Origin: Okamejei kenojei
Taxonomy: Eukaryota
NCBI GenBank assembly: GCA_035221665.1
Contig: CM069163.1
Span: forward strand, 17,856,001 to 17,920,000
DNA length: 64,000 nucleotides
Direction of reading: 5' to 3'
The notes below the pieces were generated by a model. That model was not told the origin of the DNA, searched no databases, and saw nothing but the letters and a program-made list of their open reading frames with translations. The position numbers and the translations under genes are program-made. Below are positions 2,458 through 63,049 of the stretch, piece after piece (the first letter of the stretch is position 1; each line of letters opens with the position of its first letter).

Positions 2458-2769
2458 TATTTCCTTTGCTCCATAGATGATGTCTCACCCGCTGAGTTTC
2501 TCCAGCATTTTTGTCTCCTCATATTTCGCTTGGGCAGTTTGCACCCCAGCGGTATGAACATTGACCTCTAATTTCAGGTAGTCCTTACTTCCCCCCTTCT
2601 CGCTCCTCCTCAGCCCTCTGGCTCCACCTCTTCCTTTCTTCCTCCCCCCCCCCACCCCACCCTCACATCTTTAGACTAAAGAAGGGTTTCGACCCGAAAC
2701 GTTGCCTATTTCCTTCGCTCCATAAATGCTGCCTCACCTGCTGAGTTTCTCTAGCATTTTTGTCTACCT
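2458..2769 (+). mobile_element. Penelope-like element 3' fragment in partial tandem (pLTR-like direct repeats)
   Basis: TSD ttaagtct at 2450-2457 and 2770-2777. Direct repeats at 2458-2516 and 2707-2765. The interior encodes LIFRLGSLHPSGMNID (GIY-YIG C-terminal motif), then a pyrimidine tract and a hammerhead-like core at 2676-2703. Confidence 0.8.
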
Positions 2770-4672: not shown

Positions 4673-5004
4673 GCAGTATAAGCAGTTCCTTTGTCTCGAC
4701 CCATTCCCATTCCTTCTATCTAGAGATGCTGCCTGTCTCGCTGATTTACTCCAGCTGTTTGTGTCTATCTTCGGTTTCAAGGTCAGTTTATTGTTATAAA
4801 TAACAATTAAGGTACAGTGAAAGTTTAAACCAACATCTGCAGTTCCTTCTTACACCTTTTATCTCTGATATTAAACATGAAGATTGAAGGAGATGTCATT
4901 GTTCCGAGACTTCAGTTGTATTTCTCTCTTCACAGATGCCCGAGTATTTGTAATTTTAGCATCTCCTGCTTTTATCTCAGAGTGACGGCATCTGCGGGGT
5001 TTTA

Positions 5005-5450
5005 GTTTTGCAGCGGCAGCGGCAGCGGCAGCTCCCGGTGACGTCAGCGCGCAGTGACGCGAGGGGGTGCAGGGCTCCGCCTCTCGGGCAGCGGCGCATG
5101 CGCGCGCGGTGGCTGCGGTTGCTTTGGGAGAAGCGGCTGCGCTCCATTCAAAGAAGGCGGCGGCGGCGGAGGAGAGGAGAGAGAGAGAGAGGTGAGAGCC
5201 GGCTCCAACGCTGAGCTGTGAGGCGGGAGGGGAGTGGAGTGAGTTGGGGGAGAGAAGACCGGTCCGCGCGAGGGAGGGAGGGTTTAAAACCGCCCCGCGC
5301 TGAGTCCGGCGGCGGCGGCGGCGGCGGTTTGCTATGCACCGGCGGGATCGCGCCCCGTCCGCTGCAGACTTTACCGGGGACAGGCTTGCACGCTAACCCC
5401 CCCCCCCCCCCACTACTTGCACACACACCGTGCCGTTTTACATGCTTTTC
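5005..5450 (+). promoter_or_regulatory. CpG island / probable NCS1 promoter with CRE, NRF1 and GC-box motifs
   Basis: Dense CpG in an AT-rich background. Full CRE TGACGTCA at 5039-5046, half CRE TGACG at 5055-5059, NRF1 palindrome GCGCATGCGC at 5094-5103, CCGCCC at about 5290, and GGC repeats. Confidence 0.8.
5110..5191 (+). other. NCS1: Probable non-coding first exon of NCS1 (start approximate)
   Basis: Donor-like AG|GTGAGA (gt at 5192) just downstream of the promoter motifs. TSS not determinable. Confidence 0.5.
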
Positions 5451-8400
5451 CAACGGCAGAAACTTTTTTTTTTCCCCAGCGCAATCACTGCATACTCTGC
5501 ACAAATTTACACAGATTTGAAAAATGTCCAACTCTTTCAACTTTAATTTGCAGCGATCCGCCTCAGATCAACACATTTTACCATGGGCCTCAAGTAGTTT
5601 CTTCACTAGAAATCGAATCAAGGAGGCGTGCATCGGATGATCGATTCCGTGCTGGCTGCTTTAAATTTTACAACTAAAACGGATTTTTTTTTAACCCCAA
5701 TAATGTATGGTCCAGTTTGAAAAGATAGTCTGTCCGTATTTCCTTAAAAAATACCAACCATCAGTCGTGTTGGTAGGTGGGCGTGGAATCCTTGCGTGCG
5801 TACTTTAATTTCGTTCTGTTTGTGGGTGGATTGGAGTGGTGGGTGTTGAGGGATGATTTTTAGATGACACGTATGAGCTGTATTTTGGAAACGGACTTGA
5901 ATTTGTTTTACTTTTTCAACCCAACAGATGCCTTTAAAACGCTTATTTCCCTCTCCAGTTTTTTTCAATATGAATTTCCCTTTTATGCGTAATCTGGAGT
6001 CTCTTCGAATGTCCCAGCGCTTTGGGCTGTTTGTTGTCGGGTATGATCTCAAGCCCGCTGGTGGGAGGAGCAATAGTTTACCAGGTTTTCTCTTTGTCTG
6101 CAATGTGTATGCCTCACGCTTATCTACATCGTATAAAGACACGATTTAGATTTGTAGCAGAGAAGACTCCTGATCTTGCTTGAAAATGCTAATTTTTGGG
6201 AATAAGATCGAAACAGGTTATGTTTTGTAACCAGAATACATAACTCCTAATAAATTTGATTTTCGTAGGAAATGTGTGCCCATTGAGCTTAAAATCTATT
6301 AACATCAAGTTGTACTTAAACCTCGGGCAATATTATCAGATCCAAAATGAAGCAATTTTAAATAGCACATTAAAAAAATGAAAACCACGTTGTATCTTTT
6401 TCTCTTAATTGTGTATATAACAAGCAATGAATCAATGGTGCTGCATTGCAAATTGACTTTTGTAGAATGTCAGATTTATGTTTTGTTACTTTAAAAAACA
6501 TGTTGCATAACATACTGCAAGAAAGAGTCAGACAAACATTAAAAGCAATTCAATAATGTATGTCTGCCACAGAGAAGCAACATGGGGCATTTTCTTTGGG
6601 GCATTGCACCTCTAATATTTCTTTATTTTAATATTTTTACTTCATTGTAAGCTAATATTAATTTGAATTGTTTATCTATTCTCTATTTTTCCTATGTGAT
6701 GGGGTTAAATGGTCAGTGTTGACAATTAGAACAGATTTGCCCGCAGTAAACCCGCAGAGCGTGAATACAAGTAAAATTAAGTGATTGCCGTTAATTTTAG
6801 TTTCAGTTATTCTGGACTTCATTTCCATAACTATTTTACTCCATTTTATCTGCTCATTTCGTATCAAAAGTGGTGCAAATTAACAATTAGCAGGAGTAAT
6901 TTGAAGTTGTTAAAAAACAATGTTCGAAATCTTTCTATGTGAGAAAAAAGGGAATCCCAGATGGTCTTCCTGTATTTATGATGCTTGCAAATTCTGCTGC
7001 ATACATCGGAAATGAGTGAACTTGTGGAGATACTGTTCTGCAAGCATTACAATTTGGGCATGTGTGGGAAGGATCAAATATTCACTACAGTGTTAGCCAA
7101 ACATTGTTTATCTTTGTCACTGTGTAGCACATTTTTATTACATATGAAATAATTTAAACCGGAATAGGTTCAATGATAAATGAGGCTTGAGCATTTTGAC
7201 TGAGAAGAGAGTAAAGCAAGGGCTCCAAGTCGACATGGTATGTCAAGATGGTGTTTATTTGTCATGTGCACTGCAGATGGACTATGAAAGTCTCATTTGC
7301 AGGCACATTATAGGTTCTGGTTTCTTTCTCCCCCCCCCCCCCCCCCCACCGGTAGCCATATAAATCTTAAAGGAAAACTATGTACACTTGGTAAGAACTG
7401 TGTTTAGTGCAGTCTCCTCCATGAAAGGACTCGGAACGCACTTGTGCAAATGTGAAAGGGGAAGGGGATATGTGCTGTTGTTTGTAGAACCAATACCTGG
7501 AGAAGAAAATGAACTGAAGCCTTGGGCAAGTATTCAGTTTAATTAACAATTGAGCAAGGATAAATCATGATAGTTTGTCGTCATAAACAATGGTTTCTTC
7601 ATCAAAGTAGTTATGTAACAATATCAATCTGTGTTCCATTTTGACCTCCAACTACTGCAGTCTATTCTCTTCTGAAAGGATATACTTGCATTGGAGCACA
7701 AACCATGTTCATGATAGTCCAGCCTTGAATCACTTTAAGACTTGATTGATGTACTTGGGGCAACTTGCCATTGGCATATTCCATATACATGTGTTTTGCC
7801 AGTTTAGGGCAGTCAAAATGAGGAAATTCTGTTTAAGATTCAGTTTATGGTTCAACTAATGCCAATTAATTGCATAATCGTCCATTTGCTCTGTTTGCCT
7901 TTCTACCACAGAACCTTTGAGTTTTTTTGACTCAAGCAGCTGTTCAAACCTCATTAATTGACACAGGCCAACATAGTTATATTTTCTTTGCAATATTATA
8001 CAAATGGTCCATTGTCTTTATTTAGGGGGGGGGGGGGGGGGGCCAATATTTTACAGTCATTTATTGTTAAATTTATGGTCCACTTCCACTCCATTGAATA
8101 TTAATCATGTACTGTTTCTCACAACACTCAACTTAAAGTGAAACTTGTCGAAAAGCCCACACAGTGCCATTCATTTCTATACTCAAAGGTAGTCATTTGG
8201 TCACTGCATGTCAACATTATTATGCTTTGTTCTGTTGTCAATTGTAAATCCTCATTTCATTTATATAAATTATTCCATTGCTTTGGTAACCGCCTGTGCC
8301 TCTACAGCTTCATCAATCTCTCTCTCACCAAATTATATGCATTTTCCCTAGTAATATTTCCTTTTCCTTACTGCTACAGACACTTTTGTGGCCAAACTCG

Positions 8401-8809: not shown

Positions 8810-9350
8810 GTCAATCGCTACTTGTATTGATGCATTGCCAGAATGAGGGGCCACACACGCCTACTGGGCGACATAGTACACTCACATTTTCGCTTAGGTA
8901 ACGTAAACAATGGAAATCTCTCCATTTTCAAGCAACATCACCCCCTTCCTCTTTTGTGCCCCACCCTGCATTTCTTGCAGTATTTTCACCCTCTTCCCCC
9001 TTTCAACCTCACCAATCCCTTCCTCTCGCTTATGCATTTAACTCCTCACCTTATCTGACTCTTCTTTTGTCAACTTTTCATCTCCAGTCCATGTCACTTA
9101 CTCCACCCATCTGCCAATCATCAGCTTATCGACCCACCACTTGCCTGGCTTGTCCCTCCCCCAACCTCTTTACCAGCTTTCTCCCCCCAGCTCCATCAGT
9201 CTGAATGAATGGCTCCGACCCGAAACATTGTAAAAAAAATATTGGGGGGGGGGGGGGGGAAAAGCAAATTCCATGTCCTTTAGAGATGCCTGACTCGTTG
9301 AGTTGCCCCTCATTTTGTGTTTTGCACTGATTCCCAACTGCACGGCTTCC
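8810..9350 (+). mobile_element. Penelope-like element 3' fragment (decayed GIY-YIG end, pyrimidine tract, degenerate hammerhead)
   Basis: cattgccagaatgagg...ctcacattttcgcttaggta resembles the same ORF end as 2517-2580. ctgaatgaatggctccgacccgaaacatt at 9201-9229. Confidence 0.65.
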
Positions 9351-12989: not shown

Positions 12990-13081
<92 letters not shown>

Positions 13082-13202: not shown

Positions 13203-13403
13203 AAAATACAACAAAAATGGATTGCACAAAGAAGCCAGATGGTTGGGAGTCCATTCTGACACCCAGATTTGCTTAGGGAGGTATGTGACCCAACTGTTAT
13301 CGGCTCGGCTGGTTTTTCAGACAACCTGCTTGAAATTTAAAGGTCAGGAGTTAGTAGTGACAAAAAAATTTAATAACATCATGCCATGAAAAGTTTCTGC
13401 AGG

Positions 13404-13605
13404 TAGACCCAAAATGCTGGAGTAACTCAGCGTGACAGGCAGCATCTCTGGAGAAAAGGAATGGGTGACGTTTTGGGTCGAGACCCTTCTGCAGACTGAA
13501 ACACCACCTATTCCTTACATCCAGAGACGCTGCCTGTCCTGCTGAGTTACTTCAGCATTTTGTGTCTATCTTCAGTGTAAACCAGCATCTGCAGTTTCTT
13601 CCTTG
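13404..13605. mobile_element. Fold-back (head-to-head) Penelope-derived unit
   Basis: Arms at about 13401-13475 and 13498-13572 are reverse complements. Possible TSD ctgcagg at 13397-13403 and 13606-13612. Mutated hammerhead core on the minus strand at 13467-13494. Confidence 0.75.
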
Positions 13606-14559: not shown

Positions 14560-15200
14560 CGGGGATGTCAATGGTGTTGAATGGGGGGGGGTTCAGTACG
14601 GGATGGATGGGGATAAACAAAAGTGCTGGAGAAACTCAGCGGGTGACGCAGCATCTATGGAGCGAAGGAAATAGGCAACGTTTCGGGTCGAGACCCTTCT
14701 TCAGACTGTTCCCCCCATTCTTCTTGAATGGGTGGATTAGTACAGGATGGATGGGGAGGATCAGTGCAGGATGAATTGGGGGGGGGGGGGGGTCAATACA
14801 GTGTGGAATGGAGGGTCTGTGCAGGATGAATGGGCGGTCACTACAGGATGTATGAGGGGAAGGGGGATGGTGCAGGGTAAATGGAGGGTGGGTCAGTATG
14901 GGATGAATGCGTGGATTGGTACAGGATGGATGGGGGATCCGTACAGGATGGATGGGGGATCAGTACAGGATGGATGGAGGAGAAGTGCAGGATGGATGGG
15001 AAAGGGGTAAGTAAAGGATGAATTGGGGAACCAGTGTAGGATGGATGGGGGTGGCAGGAGAATCAATGCGAGGTGGATAGGGTGATCAGTGCAGGATGAA
15101 TAGGGGGGGGGGGGTGTAGATGGGGAGGGGAGCACAGGGGATGTCAGTGAGGACTGAATAGAGGCGGGAATGGGGATCAGTGCGGGATGGAGAGGAGGGG
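14560..15200 (+). repeat. Degenerate G-rich minisatellite, unit about 22 bp (ggatggatgggggatcagtaca)
   Basis: Recurring caggatggatgggg / gatcagtgcaggatga motifs, interrupted by a Penelope unit at 14617-14706. Confidence 0.75.
14677..14704 (-). ncRNA. Minimal hammerhead ribozyme motif (Penelope type), intact core
   Basis: Minus strand reads CTGAAGA-A-GGGT-CTCG-ACCC-GAAA-CG-TT. This gives CUGANGA, stem II, GAAA, a palindromic stem III (ACGT) and an NUH site. Stem I is only about 2 bp locally. Confidence 0.7.
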
Positions 15201-22886: not shown

Positions 22887-24272
22887 GGCTGTGGGCCGAG
22901 CATCGAAAATGTGTATAGAATTTGACTTTTGTGACCCATCTCTTGGATCTACTTGAAATTTGGCATAGATTTAGATTAAAAAATAATTGAGAAGGAAGTC
23001 ATAACCCGTCAGTGCCAGCTGTTGCACATTAATTAGTTAAGCTAATTAGAAAATGAGATTGAAGAAGTAAGCGCCACCTGGTGTTCAATGCTCATATTAC
23101 TCCATGGGAGCCTAATTCCGTGCTGCTGTCTATTTAAACCATATATTATTATACCATATATGTCTGAAGAAGGGTCTCGACCCGAAATGTCACCTATTCC
23201 TTCGCTCCATAGATGCTGCCTCACCCGCTGGGTTTCTCCAGCATTTTTGTCTACTTTTGATTTTTCCAGCGTCTGCAGTTTTTTTCTTGAACATACCATA
23301 TTGTGAATATGACTGGAGTTGTAAAGAATTATATTTTATAAAAATAACATAATTGTGAATGCGTATTTTGAATGAGACTGCCGCAGAGATCCGGCTCCTG
23401 AACTCGCCTAATTAATGGGTGAGGGCAGTTCCTGTGGGTTCCCCTGTTTACTGAACCCCACTGACTGCCAGAGTGGGGGTCACGGCAGTAGTGGTACTGG
23501 GGCAGTGCCAGGCTGTGGGGAAGGCTAAGGCATCTTCCACTGAGAGGAAAATCCCTAACCCTAACCCTAATTTGCACCCCTTCCAGAGCTGCCCACGGTT
23601 GGAGCTGGAGCCGCTTTGGGACCAGCTACGGGCTCCGTAAATGTGGCCGCTCAGCGCGCCGACCTCAGCCAGCATGCCCTTCTGGATCATCATGGTGATG
23701 ATGGTGGGGAGCACGCCGCCTGGGCCACCTTCAGCACCCCCATAGTGCCGGTTCCGTCAGTCTGCCCGCTCGCTCGCTGCAACACCGGCCGGCTGACAGC
23801 CCGACCGACCCCTCGCAGCATCCACTGGCAGCCTGACAGCCTGAACGACCCCTCGCAGCACCAATCGACTGTAATCCTAACCCTAGCTCTATATTTTTAT
23901 TTATCATTTTTATTTAACAGTTCACATCATAACTTTACAAAGATAAATCAATTGTAAAACAAAATTATCAGCAAAGTTAGCATTACCTTTATTCCTTCGA
24001 AACCTCGCTATTGCTTTGATGTAATTGGGAGGCAGTCATGATCCCAGAGTGCTGCCATGAAACAAAGCGCGTGATTGGTCAATTGGCATCCGACGCAATG
24101 TCAAATGTGCATTGATTGGACAATTACTACTCGGAACATTGGAGGTTTTTCTCATATTTTAAAAATATGTGCATGTTTTGTTCTTGACGAATTTCAGGTA
24201 TGATTTCTATAATATTTTTACACAATATGTTAAAAATACAGGTAGATACATGATTTACCATGGCCCACAGCC
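22887..24272. mobile_element. Non-autonomous TIR DNA transposon (GG...CC termini, TA flanks; ISL2EU/Harbinger-like)
   Basis: ta|GGCTGTGGGCC (22887) ... GGCCCACAGCC|ta (24272). GC-rich core with no transposase. Confidence 0.6.
23160..23292 (+). mobile_element. Solo Penelope-derived unit starting at a near-intact hammerhead (23164-23191)
   Basis: TSD ataccatat at 23151-23159 and 23293-23301. CTGAAGA-A-GGGT-CTCG-ACCC-GAAA-TG-TC. Confidence 0.8.
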
Positions 24273-48600: not shown

Positions 48601-50152
48601 CTTTTTGGCTTGATTATAGTTTGTTTAGATGAGGCTATATTTTTGGATGACATAAATATCTTGTTTAAGTGATGGCACGCTATAAAGAGCAGGAAACATT
48701 GGAGCATTATCAGCTTGACTTCAGCAAAACAAAATGATTCACTCAGTGCCGGCCAGCAGTCATCTCTCTTCTTGGTACTTTTTGTTCTGGGTAAACACCA
48801 GCAAAATTTAGAAAGAGGAAAGGCTACTTCCCTACTTCTTCTTATCGAGGCCACATCACAAGATTAGAAATTGTTCAGCCAGAGTTGAACATACTTCTCG
48901 GCATCTGCATACAATGGTTTCTCGTGCGTAGTGGTGGAAAGATTGGTGGAAACAGGGTTGCGACGTGAACGCTCTTTCCTTGACCCTGCTTCCCATTTGT
49001 AGATGATTTATCCACTCCATAATTTTTGAAAGCGATGCGGTTCTTCTGTGAACACATCCATCAGTCTCACCTCCAGGGCACGTTGCTCATCAGTTGGGAA
49101 AGTCAAGGATGGGCTTTTCAAAAGTGTTCAACACTGCTTCAAGACCTCCGCCCCCCCCCCCCCCCCCCCCCCCAAGGAAGGAGGGAAAATTTTCATCAAA
49201 TAGGCTGCATCAATACTTTCATCCTCAATGGGGAAGACATACAGAGGTTGACCCTTTCGACTTCAATTTTTTTTTTAAACATTAGTTCTATTTGGAATGC
49301 TTCCAGTATTTGAAGTTAATATTTCTTTATGTGAAAATGGCCTCTTCTGCTGCTGTATTGGGACATAGATAGTTGTGATCTGTTCAGGCAAAAAGTTAAA
49401 ACCCGACCCAACTACTGAGTCTGAGGACTTGCCACTTTTTTTCATGCTCCACCCAATCCTATTGACTTAAAATGATCTCAACTATGCTGCTGTTCAGAAT
49501 CTCAACCTGGCCAAGCAGAATGTGCCTGGTTAACCCAGCATTTTTGACCCCCCATCTGTGTCCCCCATTGATACAACGTTATCCCCATGCAAAACCCTGA
49601 AGCCCATTTCTTTCCTGTCACTCATTCTAAATTATAGCATATCGGGCAGCTTCTGTAGAAAAATAAACAGCATTAAAACCCTTCATTGAAACTGGGAAAG
49701 GAAAAATTGGCTTCATGTTGTATTGGTGAATATTAAACTGCAGTCAAAGTGGTGCTCTTTTGCACCTTCTGTCACAAAGGTCAGAGTGTTACTGGTACTT
49801 TCAATGATCGCTTGTTGTTTCAGGAAGAACTTGATGCCATTGTCAAAGGTACTTAAATATTGATACTTGGAAATAACTGAGTTTTTATTGGCAAGTTCCT
49901 CTTTTAATAAAAACTCTTCACTTTTGCTAAATTATTTTCAAATGCATTGAAAATGGCATAGAAATGCACAAGTGCGACAGACGCATCTTAAAAGTTTGAA
50001 CTCTAGAATTTTGTTTTTTCTTTTGGTCATAGAAGCTTAATTATTGCAATTCAATGTTTATACTGTACATGGGATGGAGCTACAAAAAGTGTGCTGGAAT
50101 TATTGTGGATGTATCTCTTCAAATACTGTCTTCTGAATCAAGTTGCATTTTA

Positions 50153-50370
50153 TGTGTAGGAAAGAATTGCAGATGTTGGTTTAAACCTAAGGTAGACACA
50201 AAAAGCTGGAGTAACTCAGTGGGTCCATCAGCATCTCTGGAGAAAAGGAATAGGTGACGTTTCGGTTTCTGGTCTGAAGAATGGTCTTGACCCGAAATGT
50301 CACTGATTCCTTTTTCTCCAGAGATGCTGTCTGACCTACTGAGTTATTCCAGCGTTTTGTGTCTATCTTT
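50153..50370. mobile_element. Fold-back Penelope-derived unit with hammerhead-like core at 50274-50301
   Basis: Arms at about 50190-50265 and 50291-50370 are reverse complements. Confidence 0.78.
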
Positions 50371-50954
50371 GTCAGAGGTAGGATAAAGTTCAGATGTATG
50401 TCCAAACTCAGCACACAACACAGTCTAGGACATGATACTGGCTTGCAAATCCAAAAAGGAAAGAGAACATACTTAATAGATTGTGAAAGATTATGTTGCA
50501 ATTGGGGTCTTAAGTTTCAAGCACTAGAAATTGTTTGGGGGAATAAAATTCCAGGACTACCAATACAGAGTGAAAACACAAGATACAGGAAGTGTCAAGC
50601 AAGATAGTTAATATTTGATAGAGCAGGGCTGGTGTTTCAGACCAAGCCAGCTCTACTTCCTGCCTTCTCTCCCCATTCATCAGCCTTTCTGTTCTCAGAT
50701 TGTTGACATTAGATGAGTTTAAAATACTCCAACACCCCACGTCTTTGTCCCGATTCCATTTTCTTTTCTTCCACCCGTTTAGGTAGAAATGACCACATTA
50801 AAAATGACCACATTAAAACATTAAAAATGAAGTACTGTTTGATCTTGAGTTCAAAAAAAGTATGCCCTAACCCAGTGTATTTCTAGATTTCTATTACTAA
50901 CATTCCCAACCCAACCTATGCCCACATCATGCTAAAATTATTATATTCATCAAT

Positions 50955-51175
50955 TGCAAAACTGTGCTGGAGGAACTCATCGGGTTAGGCAGCATCTTGA
51001 GGGAATGGACAGACAGCTTTTTGGGTTGGGACTCTTCTTCACACAGAGGATTGACAGGGTGGGTCTCCAGCCAAATTGTTATCTGTCCATTTCTCTCCAC
51101 AGACACTCCCTGACCCACTGCGTACTCCAGCATTTTGTTTTGTTCATAATTCCAACATCTGCAGTTCCATGTTCT
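50955..51175. mobile_element. Older fold-back Penelope-derived unit
   Basis: gtgctggaggaactca..ggcagcatc in reverse orientation and cctgacccactgcgtactccagcattttg in forward orientation. Confidence 0.65.
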
Positions 51176-52479
51176 TCAGTTGCCCAGACTGAAATAATAG
51201 GTTAAAGTCTGTAAAGTGCAGCATGCATTCTATCCACAGAAAGTGCAAACCATATTCCTCTTTGTCAGTATGCATACTGACTCTCTTTCCCCAGTGTTCC
51301 AAAACATCACCCACCCTGGGGAGATTTTCCAGGTTAGTTCAGATTATATTTACTTGGATATTTAAGGAGCTCTGGGTGCTTGAAATTTTCATTTTCATTC
51401 TGTTAATTTTAACAGTTTGCTTATTGACCTATGTGTATATTTGTTTTCAAAAGAATGTAATATAATTTTCCATCTTAGTCATCTTGACGCGAGCTTTATA
51501 ACGAGCAGTGTCATGGAATTTCGCAAAAGAATGACCAACCCCCTATCCTGCTGTGAAGGCTTTTTATGCAGAACATCTACATCAGTGGAATTATTCTGAA
51601 ATTATAAAATTTCCTGATAATGGAGCCTTGTGTTTGTTGATTGTGCTTGTGCTATTGAAATTACCAGAATAATGTTTGCAGTCATTGGAGATCTGTGGAG
51701 ATGAGATACGTACATGAGCCTACTTGATAGTAGGGATGCGCACGGTAGGCCAAATGGCCTCCTTGCTGTATGACTGACACCAGCCCCACACTTTGTATTT
51801 CCAAGTAAAGTTGACACAGACTTATTACAGTATTGGGTAGTGATATGTTTGTACTAATTCAGCAGCAGCATGCTAAATAGAATTATCTCGCCTGCAGTAA
51901 AATTTATTTCTGTGAAGCAATTAATAGAAATAAAATGTTAGACGTTTATCTAATCTTTAACATGCAACGAAAGGCGTAGACCTCAAATAATTAGTTTTTT
52001 TTTGTTTTGTTCTTTAAATCTCAGCATTCAAGCTGAACGCCTGCTATTCTCACACTAATTACTAAAGTTCTGTCGGAGCAGTTTGAACAAAATATATTTT
52101 CATTCCAGGGAATAGATTAGTTTATGCACTGTGGATCCGTTCACTCCCTTTAGTACTTCACTTTGTCATTTATTCAGTATTTAATCAACATTATTTTCAC
52201 AGTGGTAAGGTCTGTTGCTTCCTGAAATGTTTTTCAGTTGATTCACTTATTCATAGTTTTTTCATCAGTCAATAAGAATCTTGGCTTCTCCTGAAGTCAT
52301 GGCTGTTCAGGACTTTGACTAGAAAGAGAGCTTCAGCATCCATCTCCGATATGCAACTTGCCCAATGGAAGTCAGTGAATTCTTGACTCAGACAGGATGA
52401 ATGAATATAACAGTAATAAGGCTAAATAAATTGCCACAGAAAATGCTTGCTTTATGTCATTTAGTACAAAAGTATAGTT

Positions 52480-53050
52480 TATCCACCGGAATTAAATAGC
52501 AAGTGCTCAGTGAATGGCAAGACTGGGGAGAGTTGTAGAGCAGAAGGATCTAGGAGTGCAGGTTTGTAGTTACAGGTAGACAGGGTGATCAAGAAGACTT
52601 TGGTACATTGGCTTTCATCATTCATGGCATTGAGTATAGAAGTGAGGATGCTATGTTACAGTTCTATAACACATTGTTGAGGCCACTCAACTGTTAAGTT
52701 TTGGTCATCCTGCTATACGAAGGATTTTGTTAAGCTGGAAAGTAGAAGATTTGTGAGGATGTTGCCAAGACTTGAAGGCCTGAGCTATGGGGAGAGGCTG
52801 AGTTTGGAGCACAGGAGGTTGAGGACTGATCTTATAGAGGTTTATATTTCACAGAGGGTGGTGGGTGCATGGAACGAGTTGCCAGAGGACGTCATTGAGG
52901 CAGTTGCTATAACAACATTTAAAAGTCTTGGACGGGCACATGTATAAGAAAGGTTTAGAGTAATATGTGGTTGTGTTGGCTGGTAGGATTAGTGTAGATG
53001 GGGATTTTTGGTCTGTGGTATTTAGTCTATCAGAGGAAATTCTGTTTGCC
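52480..53050 (+). mobile_element. Decayed CR1 fragment
   Basis: RMLPRLEGLSYGERL..LEHRRLRTDLIEVY..QRVVGAWNELP. Confidence 0.85.
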
Positions 53051-56000
53051 ATACTTCAGCAACAGACTCCCCAGCAAAAGTAATGCCCTCTCTTTAATTT
53101 GTGCATGACCAGGTGGTCTTTCTCTTTTTCCTCACATTTGTCTGCTTCTGTGTTACAGCAGCAGAATCAGTTGTGCGTTGCATACTGATTGAAAGTCACT
53201 GGTGGTTTCTACGCAGAGGCATGTCACGTGCATGGAAACCAGCCATTGAACTTCATATTGCCCACCAGTGCTAGATTCTACATCGCAAATCAATTACAGA
53301 ACGTTAGAAAGCATGTTACATAGAAATTTCAGGACATTGTGGGTGAAATGTCTTAAGTTGAAGTACAAAGTGTACAATAGCCCATTGTACACCTGACAGT
53401 TTTCTTTTGCACTACCTGCTAAATTAAATGTATTTTACTCCAGAAAAGAACAAAATCGTTTGGATTCAACAGAACACATTTTATGGAAACAAAAACCTCA
53501 CTGATATGTTGAGTGTATTTCAAACCAGTATTTCAAACCATATGTGCTGTGCTCATTTCACCTGAAGACTCTGTAATCTGGCAGAAGCAAAAACGTAGGA
53601 TTATTTATCGAATCCCTGTTCAAGCTTTTTCTGCAGTCAAAAATGGGCTACAAAAATGCTCTGATCAGTGACTTTTAGCAGTGAAACCAACACACCTTTC
53701 CGTTAAATGAATTCAGGGATGTAGTTTCCACTGAAAATACCTGCTGCCTATTCCAGAGATCCAATTTTCTTGTAAAATAACCAACATTTATCCAATTTGT
53801 AAAATTTGTTAAACTCGAGATTCATAACATCATGTTTTGTACTATCAAGTAGTTTCTTGAATATATAATGCATTTCCACAGATTGCACAAAACCAAATTG
53901 AGTTTCTCTCTCAGGTGTGCTTTCTTTAAAGAAAACACCAACCTCATTCCTAATATCTGGTTGTATTATGCTGGTTTATATTTTATCAAAATGTATATAT
54001 TGTTAGGATAAACATTACATTCTGTGCCCGGCTCTCTTAAAAGAATGAAAATGGACTATTTCAGGTTAAATTTCTTTCCCAGGTCTTCAGTTAAGTCTTG
54101 GAACCAAAGGACTTTAGGCCAAGTGCTGGTCTTTTACTTTTGGGGATTGCTGATGCAAAGTTGATGTGGCAGTTCAATATTGACATTTTACCTGGAGAAT
54201 CAGTGGTTCTGATTAGATCAGGTTGTGTGAGACCAGAGACTTGAAATTCGAGAGGGATACATTTCAACCATTTTGTTTTTTAAAGTGAGGAAATTCTCAA
54301 CCTAATGTTTTTAAAGAACAGCTGATATGAAAAATCATTAAATTAGTTACTTGTGATTTTCATGCCCATCCACTTTTTATTGCGTGATGCACTGACTTCT
54401 GAGCAGCAGGCAGGCATTGAACAACAATTCAGGATAAATGTGCTGGGTTTGCTGCGTGGCATTCTTTTCTTCCTTCGTGATAGCTTGTTTATACTCTTGT
54501 CATATTTAAGTTTATCATCATCATTCTTCATGTACACTGCCAACAGCATCAGCAGCAAAATGGCTGCAAATTAACTATTACTTTACTGGTGTATGTATTT
54601 GGTGTGACCCGACAAGGGGTCTTTAAATGTTTGAGAATCTGGCATGACTTGATTTGAAATGTTGAACTCTTATGCACTGTACAGTAGCAAATTAACTCGA
54701 GGGGCCTAGCCCTGAACATTGATAGATTTGTGACACTGCTGGTTGATCAAGCAACAATGCATCCCGTAGTTGGTACTAAATGTTTGGCAAATTGTTAACT
54801 TTGTCATCTTTTTCCTGTTCAGGTTTTTGTATTGCCAGTAATGTCATGGGCTGAAGATATTTGTATAGTTTTTTTTTTTTTAAATCTGATGACCTTAAAG
54901 CATTAACTCAGCACATTATCTGGTCTTCTATAGCACTGAGTATAACATTTATTGAGGTGTTATTTGGGCTGATTTTGTACCGAGCTGAGCATGATTGTTA
55001 TTCCTACATTCGTACTAACATTACTGTTCATGGTTAGCTGAATATGGTATGTATAAGGCTAAATGAATCAAAAACATGTTGGAAAGAAAATGGGCAGTGA
55101 GCTGTGAAAGAGCAGATCGGGCAGTGAATGTGGAGAGAAAATACTGAGCTAATACTGCAGATGAATAATCTTGCAGCAGATCTGGCCGGTACTGATACCA
55201 GCAGGAAATCTCAAACCGTCATCTCAAACTATTAATTTTGATATTGAAACCCGAAGTTTGTCAGCTTCCCGGAGGCAGGATTAGATGTGGATTCTTGAGC
55301 TTGTGTTGAACCTAGTTGGGATGGGATAGTATTCGTACGGGACATTCTGCGATGTTCCCCGAAGCCTGAGGAATGGCACCTCATCTTCTGACCACAGTCA
55401 TTAGGATACATCAGTTTCAGATAACTTGCTGTGAACCGAGCAGAACATCTGCAAATATCAACTTGATTTCCCTCTCTCTGCAGACGCTGTTTGGTCTGTT
55501 GGGAATTCCAATGATTTCAGACCTCACGAAACATGTTTCGCCTGCATTTCATAACTCCTACATGTCCCTGTGTTTGTTTTCTCTCCAACTTCCCTCTTCA
55601 ATCTTTCAATTAGATTGTTTCAGAGACAGCAGTCATCTCAACAAGCCTGGTTTCGCCCTTTGTCCAATGCGTTCCTCCTCCACCCTCTCACTTTCCACTT
55701 CTGATGAAGAGGGCATCGAAATAAACCATTAAGTCCGTTTCTCTTTCCAGAATTGTTGCCTGACCTGCTGAGTGTTTGTTATTTCAATAAGTGTTTACAT
55801 CTAGCTTCCCCAACAGCTCATTGGGTAAAAGTATTTTCTAGTACAGTATTAAACAGTTCAGCCAAGCTCACTGGTTTAATTCCTGGACCATGCTTGAGTC
55901 ACTGAGATCATGAGACACTGCAGTAAAGGTGCATCAAAGCTCTGTCTAGATTTGATCAGTCCACTGATCTCATGGGTAAAGTTACTGAGGACTGCAGGTG

Positions 56001-56529
56001 CCTGTGTAAACATTTAAGAATTAATATCTTCAGGAAAAGTGCAACCTAACTTGTGTCACAATTTGTGTTAATGTTCCTTTGAAGAGCAGCCATTGAAAAA
56101 CCTCTGTACTGAACTCTGCACTCTTTGCTACTTTCTGATCATGTCATGAGCCAATGCCAGAGACAAGATGCACCTCCATTAATTTTGCGCAGTTCCAATT
56201 GTCTGGTTTGACCGCATGTCCCAGTTTGTCTTCATGTTAAATATCTGAACTTATGTGAGCAATGTATTGCATGTGATATGTGAAGCACTGATTATACAGC
56301 AATATTTGAGCAAATAAGGTCAATAAAATCTTGAAGGCGTGATCTTACGTATTTTGACTTTTTTATTTTTAATGTTTTTTTCTTTCTAACTTGCCAGTTC
56401 CTAGAAGTGGCTATCTTCAGTTGTGAAGCTCAAGACAAGTTCTTGGAAATTGCACTGCAGGCCATTGTCAGTTGTGCCAAGAACAGCAGATAAATACTGC
56501 CTCCGGGACCCGTTAATCTTTGCTCACTT

Positions 56530-56720
56530 GGTTTAACCGGAGGAAGCTATCGAAGTAGATGCAGTTACGACTTTTAAAGGACATTGGACAGATATATGTT
56601 TACGAGGAGTTTAGAGGACTATGTGCCACATGGAGCCAAATGGAACAAGTCCAATGTGCCTACAGTTAGCATAGCATCGACAAGGTGGGCCGAAGGGTCT
56701 TTTCCATGCTGACACAGGTC
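56530..56720 (+). mobile_element. CR1 3' end fragment
   Basis: cttttaaaggacattggacagatatatg...gtgggccgaagggtcttttccatgctg matches the CR1 3' ends elsewhere in the window. Confidence 0.65.
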
Positions 56721-57552
56721 TCTGACACGGGGACTTAATAACAAAGACAGTTTGCATTTATATATTCGCTTTTATATGGTAAAGTGCTACAGGGGTGTCA
56801 TTAGACAATGAGCAATTAAACAGCAGCCTGTATGATATCAATAATCAGTGGTAAAGATCTACGTTTTCCACAATATTGAGAGACTGTTTGGTTTAAGGAG
56901 AGATCTTAAGAGTTAGAAAACTTGGATCTCTTTGCAAATGATTAGCCTGAAAGAGATTACAGGGTTATGGAGGGACCATACAATGGAAGGATTTGAATTT
57001 TAAATCCAGGTGATAATGGACGTTCAGCAAATGCAAATCAATGAACATGGATCTGATGAATGAATGGGACTTAGTCCGTTACGGTATGAATTGCAGAAAC
57101 ATTCTGGAGATTGTTTTAGGTGCAGATTCAACAAGATTATGTCTATTCAATGTGTAAAAGGGAGGGTTAATCCAGTATAGATTTTACAGGTGTGCCCAGC
57201 ACTTTTATCAATTTGCCTTTTATTTCATACTACTTACATTCAAAGGTTCTGACTGCTGTTTGCAGCATTGGAACCAAAACGTCGTGTATCTGCACCACTG
57301 ACGGAAAGCCTGAATCCTTGCAATCTGGGGCATGAGTGCTTTTGGGTTGGTAGTTTAGTCGTCAGTTGAAGGAAAGGTAATTTTAGTAAAGAAGATCATA
57401 CAGTCTTTTAATCTTAAATGATTTATGCTGTACATATTGTTGTACAAAGCAATTTATGCTATATGCAGAAAACATTTTTTATTTGGCTTGTCCGCTGATT
57501 TGACCAAAAAGCTTTCTAACCCAAAGAACTAATTACAACTAGCCTTAAATGA

Positions 57553-57638
57553 AGAAGGTCTCGACCCGAAACGTCGCCTATCTCCTTCGCTCCTTAGATG
57601 CTGCTGCACCCGCTGAGTTTCTCCAGCTTTTTGTGTAC
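57553..57638 (+). mobile_element. Solo Penelope-derived unit truncated within the hammerhead core
   Basis: TSD ccttaaatga at 57543-57552 and 57639-57648. (tga)agaaggtctcgacccgaaacgtc is followed by the family tail. Confidence 0.8.
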
Positions 57639-60559
57639 CCTTAAATGATACTTGTTGCTCCCAGAGTCAATGGTTTGGTCTTTCCCTCCTGTGTGGTGAA
57701 AAAAAACCCAATTACTGAGTCTGCTGTTCCTATCATTGGAAAAAGCTATCTTCCGACAATTCAATGACTCTTCATGCTATCAAGATGTTGAATACAGCAA
57801 AGGTGCTGGGTCCACTTAACATCCCAGCTGTAATGCTGATGCCTTATACTACAGAACTAGCCAGGCCTTTAGCCAAGGTGTCACAGAACAGAATGCATCA
57901 ACTTGACCATGTGAAAAATTGGTGCAGGTGGAACATACATGGGCAATGTGAGAAATGCAATCTGTGTTCTGCCGTTACTTTAGTCTGTTCTGGGTATTTC
58001 ATCAGCTTGCTATCATGTGGCACTTGCTCCTCAATAACCTCCTCTGTAATATTCAGTTTCGGTTTGCCAGAATCATCACGCTCCAGAATTTATTAAAGCT
58101 TTGGTAAAAAAAAAACAGTGCTGCTTTTTTGTGGACAAAAAAAATATCTTTAAAGATAAAAAAAAGTTCACTCAATTAACTGCTGTACATCAATCTAGTT
58201 TAGAACGTTCTATAGGTGCCGGTACACTAACACAGCACATGCAGTCACAAAAAAACACTGGTCCAAACCTGAAAGAGCTGAACCCCAAAGACAAAGTAAG
58301 AGCCCTGACAAAAGGACCCTGTTTACATACGAGTGACATCAGGTTTGCACAAACTTGAAGTCATTGGGAATCATCAAATACAGCCCATCTAAAATATATA
58401 ATTTCCTTCTGGTGATTTTTATCTATGTTGATGCATTTTTTGGCTGTGGTTAACTTGATATTGGAGGTCGAGTGTTTAATATTATTTCAGCTGACGGAAG
58501 TTTAATTCGCTGTTTAGAAGATGATTACCATCTTTAGAAGGTTTTCTTTGCACTTAAACTTTTTTAGCAGCTAATACTCCACAAATCTCACAAATCCACA
58601 AAGAGAGTTAATTGCATTATGTTCAGGATGTTACATTTGACAGAAATATGTGCTGAAGTAAAGCTCAGTTAAACTCGCTGAGAGCAATTTTTTGAGAATG
58701 GATACCATGTGCATCACTTTATTGTTAGTAAATTTCTCTTCCCCATCTCATTTATCCAAACCCTTCCCTCCCCAGAAACACCCGCTAGCCTTTTCAGTTA
58801 ATTGATGCTATCGCTTCTCTCACCAGCTGTGCTGGCTTATCCTACATTCTCATCATCCTTTGGGTTTGAAAGCTTCACCAAACTTTCTTCTAAAGTTTGA
58901 GTTTTCCACTAGTATTGCCAGCATTGGGGTTGTATAAAATCTGCAATAACTCCCTTCCCACTCCTGCACTGGTACGTCTGGTGTCTCCAGAGGTGCATCC
59001 TTGATCCTCAGACATTGTTCACCCCTGTGCCACACATCCAAAAATACTGCACCATTTTTGTATGTATTCCAGATCCACCAGTTCCACCTCAGTAACACCT
59101 ATGTGATCACCTCCATTCCAAATGATATTCAAAGTTTAGTGTTTTCCCAACATCCATTAATGCAAAATTTATTCGTTAACTATTGTAGGCCCCTTACAAA
59201 GTTCTGTACAATCTGTTCTTTTCCTCTCCTGAGCAATGAGGCAATAGCAGACTGCAGCACTAACATCATGTCTGATGCAGAGATGAGCTTAAATCCCAGC
59301 CGATATTGCTCAGTCTGTTTATTTCCATCCCTGTGACTCTGCCTGTACTCGATTTCTGCTTGAGCTCATATGCTGTGGAAATTCTCGGCCCGGCTTTGGT
59401 AACCTCCAGACCTGCACCATTTATTGTTGCCAATCACATCAATATTTCACTTTACCAATTAATGTTGACTTTTGGTCATTTAAAAAAAAAGTAATCTTGT
59501 TCACTCAGGCCTTCAGATGCGCAGTAATGGGGATAAATTGGAACAGTATGAGCAAGGCGTGTGTCCGGTCACTCAGCAACAGGAAATAAGTCGTAAGTTG
59601 AAACGGGGTACAGGAACAAATCACCAGGATGTTACCTGGGCTTCCAGCCTTGAGTTATACAGAAAGGTTGGAGGGGGTGGGGGTGACTTTATTGAGGTGC
59701 ACCAGATCATGAGGGGCATTGATTAAGTGAACACTCAGTCTTTCCCAGAGTAGATCATTCTGAAACTCCAATTTGAATACATTTAATCATTGGCTTAACG
59801 TGAGAAGAGAGACATTTAAGGGGGACCTTGGGCAACTTTTCACTCAGCAGGTAGTCCATATCTGGAAGGAGCTGCTGATCCTAACAATGGTGTTCATTTT
59901 TCTTGAAAGAGTTGCAGTGTAAAACCTACACTGGTCACCAGGTGGCAGAGTATCACTAATTTATGGTTACCTAGTAATTTATTGTATTGATTATTATATA
60001 ATCAATAATAATTGATTATTTTATATATAATAATCAATAATGCATAAAATTAAAGATTCTGTTCTGTTAAGCTGCAACAATTAAGAATGTTATTGTTCCA
60101 TTGCCAGTACATATGACAATTAAACTCTTTTGACTTTTGACTTCAAATTCCGATGCCACGTCTTGCTTTGCATTCTAGTTTTCTTGTTGTTTTATCACCT
60201 TTGGGTCACGCTGCCACTTGCAGAAGCAGCCACGAGCAAGTTTGCTTTATGGATTGTCAACCACCCCACATCTCGATCCCATGATAGTGTCCTGATGTAT
60301 TTGTAGTCGAGACATCTGGAGTTTTCCAACAATTTCTTCCCCCTCTGGAGAACATTCACTGTGTGCTCTTGTCTTGGAACTTCCCAAACTGATTTGTAAA
60401 AGTCAGCCAAGATTGAATAATGGTTTTTGCTGTGGTTCAAAGCATCTTCTGCAGTAGGAGCCGCCAGCTGGTCACTACGTCAGGTGTCAGGGCAGAGAGT
60501 GCAGTGAATTGGCAATGCAGACCTGCTCATGAATGCCAGTGATCCAACGATACAAGTAA

Positions 60560-61045
60560 CAAATCTCTCCCCTCTCACCGTATGTCTATGCGCTCCAGTT
60601 TTAAAACCCTCTACCCTGGGGAAAAAGACTGCAAGCTACCACTTTAGGCCTCAATAAGGTCACCTCTCAGTCTCCTATGCATTGAAGAAAAAAAGTTCCA
60701 GCCCATCCCACCTCTCCCTAAGACTCAAGCCCAAGTAATGTCCTGGTAAATCTCTTCTGCACCCTTTCCAACTTGCAATCCTTTACATTCATCTCTTGAA
60801 GGTGGCTCTTCTGACAATTAGCAGTCTCTTAGTGCTGAACTGGAGTCATAGAGTGATACAGTGTGGAAACAGGCCTTTCGGTCGAACTTGCCCACACCGG
60901 CCAACAATGTCCCAGCTACACTAGTCCCACGTGCCTGTGCTTGGTCCATATCCCTCCAAACCTGTCCTATCCATGTACCTGTCTAACTGTTTCTTAAACG
61001 ATGGGATAGTCCCAGCCTCAACTACCTCTTCTGGCAGCTTGTTGC
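60560..61045 (-). mobile_element. CR1 fragments (about 60560-60780 and a 3' end at 60845-61045)
   Basis: Reverse complement of CR1 ORF2/3'UTR motifs (ccatatccctccaaacctgtcctatccatgtacctgtctaa; cccagcctcaactacctc). Confidence 0.75.
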
Positions 61046-61467
61046 CTGGCGTGATGGTGGTTAAGATGCTTCTAGATAGATACATGGATATGCAAGGAAC
61101 GGAGAGACATGGGTCATGCGCAGGCAGACGTGAATAATTGCACTAGGCTTTGTTTTTGGCACAGACATTGTGGGCTCCGAGCTGATCCCAAGGGGATGGA
61201 AGCAGCTCAGTTACATGTCGGGAACTCACATTATCCAGAGTTGTCATCAGTTGCCCCAGTGAAAAGAGGAGGGCTGGTACCCCTCCCATGCGCTGTGGCT
61301 TTGACCTGGCCCAGCACAGGGCTGTCCCTTCATTCCGGGCATCATAAAGATCAAGCCCGCAAACTAGGAAAGGGAATGAGAGAATATGACAAATGAGGTA
61401 AATGCAGAAATGAACCAAAATTGGAAATTAAATAATTTACATTTTGAAAGGGGGCATGTTAACTTGT

Positions 61468-61665
61468 GGAACTCTGTGCTGGAGGAACTTTGCAGGTCGG
61501 GTAGCATCTGAGGGGGAAAACGAACAGACGACATTTCAAGTAGGGATGCTTCAGCCCCAAAATGTCGTCAGTCCATCCCCTCCACGGACGCCGCCTGACC
61601 GGCAAAGTTCCTCCAGCACTTTGCGTTTTGTTCAAAATTCTAGCATCTGCAGTTCCTTATGTCTT
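61468..61665. mobile_element. Fold-back Penelope-derived unit
   Basis: gtgctggaggaactttgcaggtcgg and cctgaccggcaaagttcctccagcac form inverted arms. Confidence 0.7.
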
Positions 61666-63049
61666 GTTATATGAATGTTAGACGTTCTGAGTGAAGCAAG
61701 TAAGAGTTCGAAGGCTTGTTCCAAATAACCAATGTCAATGAGAAGTGTCAGAATGTAAAAAGAAGTGGATTTGCTGAGAAGTGTCAGTGGTTTGAATCTC
61801 AACCTGCGCTGGGCTGCATCGCAGCAGAGGGGCTGAATGTAACCCGAGGCACAGCTTCACCTGCGGCTACTGGCAGAGAACTGGACATTTGTCTTCTCCG
61901 TCCTTGCTCAGGATATTAATGAGGTCTCTGAGCAATTCCACAGACCCTAACAACTGCCTCTGCCTTCCCCGACCGGTTTGTCCCACAGCCTCCAGGATAG
62001 TCATAAAAGAGTTAATGTCTGAACTGTTCTTCTCTGTGACAATAGATAATATAACTTGGCTAACAAGGAATCCTGAAGATAGTGTATGTCCGACTTGGGT
62101 GTCCTTCATCCCATGGAATGAACAAAGCAAAAAATAATTATATTCTTGGATTCCCCCAGAGGCTAGTATGGGGGTGATTATAAGCGCAAGCAGAGAGAAT
62201 TAATTATTTCTATCATTCTTCATGTCCTCTTAACAATGTTAAATAGTAAACATATTCCAGAAAGCATTAAAATGAAGATGTAAGTCTCTCCCAAAGTGCA
62301 TTCTGCAAGGACTATTTTAATCTGTTATAGTAAGCAATATTGCTCCTTAGTTCTGGGACATAAACATGATTCATCTTCTCAGACAGTAAGAATCTAACGT
62401 CGTCATTCTCCTAATTTAAAATGTCAAAGTTGCTCTCTGACAATTAATCCAGCCCACCCTGGGCTGAGGTGAAGGGGCACCTCGTGCTCAGACTGAAATC
62501 TGAGCAATGGCTACATCAGTGAGTTGAGACTTAACATGAGAGCCCTGCAGCAATGGATCATTTTTTTCACCGGCCTCTCAGCCAGATAAGTGCCTCTGCG
62601 GCAGGAAGGGGTGTACGGTAAATGGCAACATTTCACGAGTGCCCCATAAATTTTATAATGTTGTATTGTTGCAATAGTCATCATTTACTGTGGTGATCCC
62701 CAGGAATCTCACACCTCTGTGAGACTTTATTCCCTAGAATTCATATCTGCCATTCCCAGGACAAGCTTTTCATTCCAATTACATCAGCATAGCATCAATC
62801 TTCCTTTACATGGATTCCTGCAGCAAATGGTTCCAGGGGTTTTTTTTTTTTTAAAACATTGGTTTTCAATGTGTAATGGTGTGAGGGCATTAGTATATGG
62901 AGCCTTCAGAGCAGACACAACAAGCCATGGGCGTGTTCTTCAGCATGAGGCCCATGACCATGGAATGTACCAGTCTGCAACATTCATTGGCAGACAGCTC
63001 CTCGCAAAGTAAACCCATGTCCCTGAGAAAGACATCCTTAAAGTTGTAG

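Follow-up and report, generated by a model that had tools for sequence, protein, structure and literature searches.

How a short insert came to carry the segment that follows a hammerhead ribozyme twice, on either side of a single hammerhead, is the question raised by positions 2458-2769 of the window, the 64,000-nucleotide stretch of Okamejei kenojei contig CM069163.1 analysed here. The insert comprises 312 nt and lies between two exact 8-bp copies of a target-site duplication (TSD), TTAAGTCT, at 2450-2457 and 2770-2777 on the forward strand, the left copy abutting its 5′ end in an AT-rich target and the right copy its 3′ end, where the first T of the duplication is also the element's usual next base. 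When 200,000 pairs of window positions were drawn at random, 118 gave a boundary-anchored 8-mer match, and a TSD by chance was rejected on that basis. Between the duplications, all on the forward strand, an upstream post-hammerhead copy (2458-2516), the last codons of the open reading frame (ORF) of a Penelope-like element (PLE; 2518-2582), a pyrimidine-rich tract of 3′ UTR (2583-2674), a minimal type I hammerhead motif (2676-2703) and a downstream post-hammerhead segment (2704-2769) follow one another. Counted from the predicted cut (2703|2704), the upstream copy spans +4 to +62, three nucleotides after the cut being gone, and the downstream segment spans +1 to +66. The stretches 2458-2516 and 2707-2765 are identical at 53 of 59 positions at an offset of 249 nt, and the insert amounts to 1.25 units of 249 nt with one hammerhead; Tandem Repeats Finder reported no array at this locus. 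At the junction (2516-2519) the end of the post-hammerhead segment meets that of the ORF across an (A)CCT microhomology present in both, and the insert's 3′ end (2766-2769) halts at that same ACCT, which we take to be the short class of 3′ ends and a putative start site of reverse transcription. A first-pass annotation had described the TSD, the order of the parts, the two segments 249 nt apart and a 5′ end 3 nt downstream of the predicted cut, and each of these descriptions stands; its explanation, a retrozyme-like unit templated by a cleaved or circular RNA, is weighed below.

Logan contigs from four of 24 runs, representing four organisms and four studies, were aligned to 2300-2900 at 82% likeness (48,719 to 61,495 aligned contigs per run). 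The ORF end at 2518-2582 consists of 16 open codons (2518-2565) followed by frameshifted sequence; judged by eye, 2 nt have been lost after these codons relative to most aligned contigs, and the 30-nt consensus upstream of them in the contigs is stop-free in the same frame. From a general resemblance and from its position we presume the 16-codon remnant to be a GIY-YIG C-terminus. Protein searches with the 45-aa frame that spans the junction gave nothing or only chance-level matches, the peptide being too short to confirm GIY-YIG; Pfam recognised no PLE ORF remnant among 249 frames of the window, and a reverse transcriptase (RT) ORF of telomerase-like type is absent from the 312-nt fragment. 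A motif pattern for the ORF end had no match in viral contigs, a collection that does not hold the host, so that this result is uninformative, and its sole match in metagenome contigs (L001), again a collection without the host, was GC-rich, unrelated and discarded as chance. The pyrimidine-rich tract ends in AG right before the hammerhead, possibly an intron acceptor.

The consensus core of 12 hammerhead units in the window reads CTGAAGA, one unpaired A, helix II GGGT/ACCC, GAAA, CG and TC, and it matches the minimal hammerhead motif, in agreement with the annotation's assignment of the locus to a PLE-type end module. The copy in the insert reads CTAAAGA-A-GGGT..ACCC-GAAA-CG-TT, the core G5 being replaced by A at 2678. 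Among the aligned contigs, G at this position accounts for about 95% of the depth in run X1 and for 94% in each of the remaining three, summed contig depth not being taken as copy number. The substitution had been noted in the annotation and is well borne out; judged from the sequence, it supports the view that this hammerhead is probably dead. Rfam gave no hammerhead match at gathering level and, up to an E-value of 10, solely sub-threshold unrelated families. A hammerhead motif pattern had no match in viral and prokaryote genome contigs, collections in which the host is not represented and which are for that reason uninformative.

The relative age of the two post-hammerhead segments was assessed against three window copies of the same subfamily. 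Each segment carries three private changes in 59 nt (for the downstream segment within 2707-2765), and no derived change is shared. Equal numbers of private changes with none in common indicate that the two segments are equally old, and together with the one enclosing TSD this fits a single event in which both were copied from similar templates. A late local duplication was rejected, given the lack of a shared derived change. The decay of the insert as a whole is about 5%.

The window is dense in copies of the family to which the insert belongs. Scanning it with a profile made from its own copies gave 22 matches, from which a weak 36-nt match at 1290-1325 (E 0.027) was left out, giving 21 units at 16 loci, or about one locus per 4 kb; the profile row at 2461-2540 was taken as 2458-2516, and the row at 9270 is the downstream half of an interrupted unit with its hammerhead at ~9198-9230. 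By their starts, the 21 units divide into thirteen that extend to the hammerhead's 5′ edge (−27 to −31, the point at which the reference starts) or beyond it upstream, seven with starts between −8 and −23, and the 2458 insert as the only one to start past the cut; 20 of 21 keep sequence upstream of the cut. Most 3′ ends lie around +52 to +68 or +93 to +100, the alignment ends of old copies being imprecise. Five of the 16 loci are double insertions, and four of these are head-to-head inverted (13403-13605, 50158-50371, 50957-51176 and 61477-61666), each of which pairs a long arm (+96 to +98) with a short one (+52 to +68); their tail-bearing arms start at −8, −10, −20 and −11, respectively, and accordingly run through the cut site. 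TSDs of 9 bp and 10 bp flank the copies at 23162 and 57550. At 12 other loci the best TSD matches are 4-7 nt and inside the null, and the same holds for the candidate TSDs of the four head-to-head doubles. An older fragment of another subfamily at ~8845-9330, with ORF end, long pyrimidine tract and hammerhead, is broken close to its cut site by runs of A and of G and shows no upstream post-hammerhead copy. Many short copies have their start on the hammerhead's 5′ edge, not at its cut (e.g. 23162-23292, 57550-57638 and 14614-14706), some of them with TSDs of 9-10 bp; this edge, preceded by the pyrimidine tract and AG, may resemble a splice acceptor. Elsewhere in the window a GC-rich, CpG-island-like stretch with one sub-cutoff Pfam match lies at ~4870-5680, about 2 kb from the insert, a pure C run of 92 nt occupies 12990-13081, and Pfam matches to PF09004 (4359-4610) and PF00078 (45845-46147), both on the reverse strand, are presumably LINE remnants.

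The junction 2516|2517 occurs once in the window, and the aligned contigs show the two sequences from which it was made. Contigs matching up to 2516 continue as an ordinary extension starting ACCT (432, 395, 341 and 263 contigs in the four runs), and those matching from 2517 arrive from the ordinary upstream ORF with an A before CCT (364, 353, 350 and 312); the ordinary order of ORF end and tract is also present. ACCT thus stands at the joint in either parental sequence, and it is the window that has lost the A. None of the 32 pieces listed, out of 213,501, bridges the junction, which is a weak test because short junction contigs, including those of the insert locus itself, would be missing from such a list; two of the listed pieces extend as far as the junction and break off there into additional letters that do not match. 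At the 5% listing level, none of the four runs showed an A inserted at 2516. Upstream of the insert, 2303-2425 is another repeat, found in many contigs at 85-90% in all four runs, and only ~2426-2457 of the 5′ flank is unique. Single-copy contigs of the 3′ flank end at 2778-2783 in three runs and neither show nor exclude the insert there, and no empty site was found among the 15 joints listed of 233.

Eleven of these 15 listed joints are head-to-tail. Nine of them land at the start of the hammerhead (2679-2682), one at +14 and one at +1. Most comprise 1-6 contigs per run near single-copy depth with scattered upstream ends, as expected of independent events; one reaches a depth of 359 in run X1. 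The joint on +1 (2514 to 2704) is represented by two contigs of depth 99 in run X9 and one contig of depth 381 in run X10, and could be either a small 58-nt tandem or an event on a cleaved template. The largest mixed-flank class of loose ends among the 24 rows listed of 1,717 lies just before the hammerhead and not at the cut (744, 621, 710 and 443 contigs). The position of 5′ ends relative to the cut speaks against the retrozyme-like reading in the window (one of 21 units starts past the cut) and in nine of the 11 listed head-to-tail joints; the single listed joint class on +1, present in two organisms, counts in favour of the annotation's wider idea. Two further kinds of joint were observed. 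Those from 2500-2516 to 2679-2682 are head-to-tail dimers of a ~90-nt hammerhead module with scattered junctions; with two hammerheads each, they would be better retrozyme candidates than the 2458 insert. Those from 2715/2716 to 2682/2683 represent a 34-nt go-back seen in each of the four organisms, with as many as 15 contigs in a run and depths mostly from the hundreds to above 1,000; it repeats helix II through +13 without the CUGANGA core.

The most plausible explanation of these observations, and one that we consider probable, is that the insert is a single 5′-truncated head-to-tail insertion of an abundant PLE whose RT jumped back to its internal start site. The element is best read as endonuclease-positive, with a putative GIY-YIG protein. 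We infer the enzymatic steps as follows. The element's endonuclease would cleave the two strands of an AT-rich site 8 nt apart, and target-primed reverse transcription would start inside an uncleaved RNA at ACCT, ~66 nt past the hammerhead cut site, the 3′ end common to many short copies. The RT would then copy about 250 nt, passing an intact hammerhead and the pyrimidine tract and reaching into the final codons of the ORF. On meeting the next ACCT there, the cDNA may re-anneal to the ACCT of the start site on the same or a second RNA, a template jump by the PLE RT on a 4-nt match, with the loss of one base and the copying of 59 nt more. Synthesis would stop at +4, either truncated in the ordinary way close to the hammerhead or because a cleaved RNA ended there, and the product would be joined to the target; the inserted copy would later decay by about 5% and lose G5. 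That the joint falls on the very ACCT at which the insert ends on its 3′ side counts for a jump back to the start site, the one TSD around two copies of equal age counts for a single insertion, and the frequency of doubles in the window counts for a one-off head-to-tail event. The start at +4, unique among the 21 units, speaks against this jump-back, since it fits the end of a cleaved RNA.

The joint could instead have been present in the template. The insert would then be copied from a master locus already bearing the junction, an ORF-less 249-nt retrozyme-like unit of a small family, either as a linear multimer cleaved at the upstream hammerhead, which explains the +4 start, or as a circle copied 1.25 times; we regard this as possible, if doubtful. 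The 249 nt of the unit falls within the 150-450 bp reported for metazoan retrozymes (PMC7229834), its lack of coding sequence beyond a 16-codon remnant and its 8-bp TSD agree with retrozymes as well, tandem PLE-derived retrozyme families are described from one chondrichthyan genome (Li 2026, bioRxiv 10.64898/2026.07.22.740005), and a circle model has been proposed for PLE tandems (PMC4209133). The 5′ end 3 nt from the predicted cut and the joint class landing on +1 in two other organisms point the same way. Active retrozymes, however, are recognised by two consecutive hammerhead-bearing units (Li 2026), and the insert has a single hammerhead, mutated, in place of two complete type I units. Retrozyme circles are also highly self-paired (PMC7229834), but the 249-nt unit folds no better than shuffled sequences, whether linear (z −0.33) or as a circle (z −0.24 and 42% paired, with 77 of 200 shuffles doing as well), a test weakened by the decay of the copy. 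The absence of a bridging piece among those listed, the absence of an inserted A at the 5% level and the ORF-end fragment at ~8845-9330, with no upstream post-hammerhead copy, weigh against a master locus too, and under a crude uniform null a start within +1 to +4 has a chance of 0.65 among 20 units and of 0.23 among five doubles. A circle, moreover, has no end at the cut and cannot explain the +4 start, which only a linear cleaved RNA can; rolling-circle copying was therefore rejected as its cause, and a stop near the cut and a circular template are alternatives that lend each other no support. With one hammerhead, 1.25 units and such a circular fold, the proposal of a retrozyme family with a circular template is not upheld for this insert.

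A deletion after insertion would produce the same arrangement by another route, and we hold it to be improbable. A long PLE copy running from hammerhead to hammerhead, made from cleaved RNA, could have lost its ORF between ACCT motifs, which yields the same order of parts within one TSD, accounts for the start at +4 and has a precedent in the microhomology-mediated deletions that disable many Penelope copies in Adineta (PMC3846280). Such a deletion must nevertheless begin exactly at the ACCT of the insert's own 3′ end, a coincidence here that is expected under re-priming, and the interior of the insert holds no remnant of a PLE ORF, nor was any recognised by Pfam in the 249 window frames. Highly improbable, finally, are two separate events, in which a second short copy or a local DNA duplication was added to the 5′ edge of a fragment already in place. 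The density of the family, with 16 loci in 64 kb, would favour repeated hits, and the PLE endonuclease has been reported to cut its own ORF-pLTR junction in vitro (PMC11167929), yet one TSD surrounds everything, the upstream copy has none of its own, and the copies are equally diverged with no derived change in common.

The insert is an ordinary decayed PLE end insertion, and a PLE origin of animal retrozymes has already been argued by Li (2026), from phylogeny and, in the account given there, without a mechanism; a literature search joining hammerhead ribozyme and elasmobranch found no paper. As one dead fragment the insert matters little, a state of affairs that a joint recurring in many copies would change. 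One may speculate that the locus is a snapshot of the birth of a retrozyme, an unlikely view that draws on the presence of ACCT both at the RT start and in the last ORF codons, which lets one jump create an ORF-less 249-nt unit. Should the junction without the A identify a family in which 5′ ends pile up at +1 to +4, cleavage products of minimal hammerheads would be retrotransposed in vivo, in contrast to the in vitro work on an Anolis element in which cleavage was found unneeded (PMC11167929). If that family is true, a concrete route from pLTR to retrozyme would be at hand, the mechanism that the phylogenetic argument of Li (2026), as presented, lacks.

Known systems resemble the insert in separate respects. 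The minimal hammerheads of PLE pLTRs (PMC4209133) share with the window consensus the CUGANGA core with one unpaired base before helix II, GAAA, the palindromic CG at 15.2-16.2 and a short helix I, whereas in the insert G5 is an A, and a second hammerhead close by, with which a dimer could fold, is missing. Like the non-LTR retrozymes described in PMC7229834 and by Li (2026), it is a 249-nt non-coding unit with a type I hammerhead, a TSD of more than 4 bp and an origin in a PLE terminus, but it differs from them in lacking at least two hammerhead-bearing units in tandem and in not being self-paired. PLE copies typically carry a pLTR, an optional tail and an inverted 5′ companion (Arkhipova 2013, PMC3846280; Craig 2021, PMC8557442), and the four head-to-head doubles of the window show the optional tail of 30-40 nt on one arm. 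In the same two sources, endonuclease-positive PLEs have TSDs of 8-10 bp at AT-rich targets, tandem and inverted doubles and two classes of 3′ ends ~30-35 nt apart, as in the window family, and their truncated partial tandems follow the insert's order of ORF end, UTR, hammerhead and post-hammerhead segment; the tandems described there are far longer, and the upstream copy of the insert differs from them in being post-cut only and joined to a truncated ORF end, not seamlessly. A functional parallel is PAc, a Poseidon element of Anolis (Frangieh 2024, PMC11167929), which is a different element in another host and for which a jump back to the start site is not known to be described. In vitro, its RT initiates internally at fixed sites downstream of the hammerhead, on AT-rich targets and with no need for hammerhead cleavage, and the report gives no RNA-seq reads ending at the cut. 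The 3′ ends of the insert family likewise lie at fixed internal sites past the hammerhead, and uncleaved RNA is the usual template of PAc, as proposed here for the insert.
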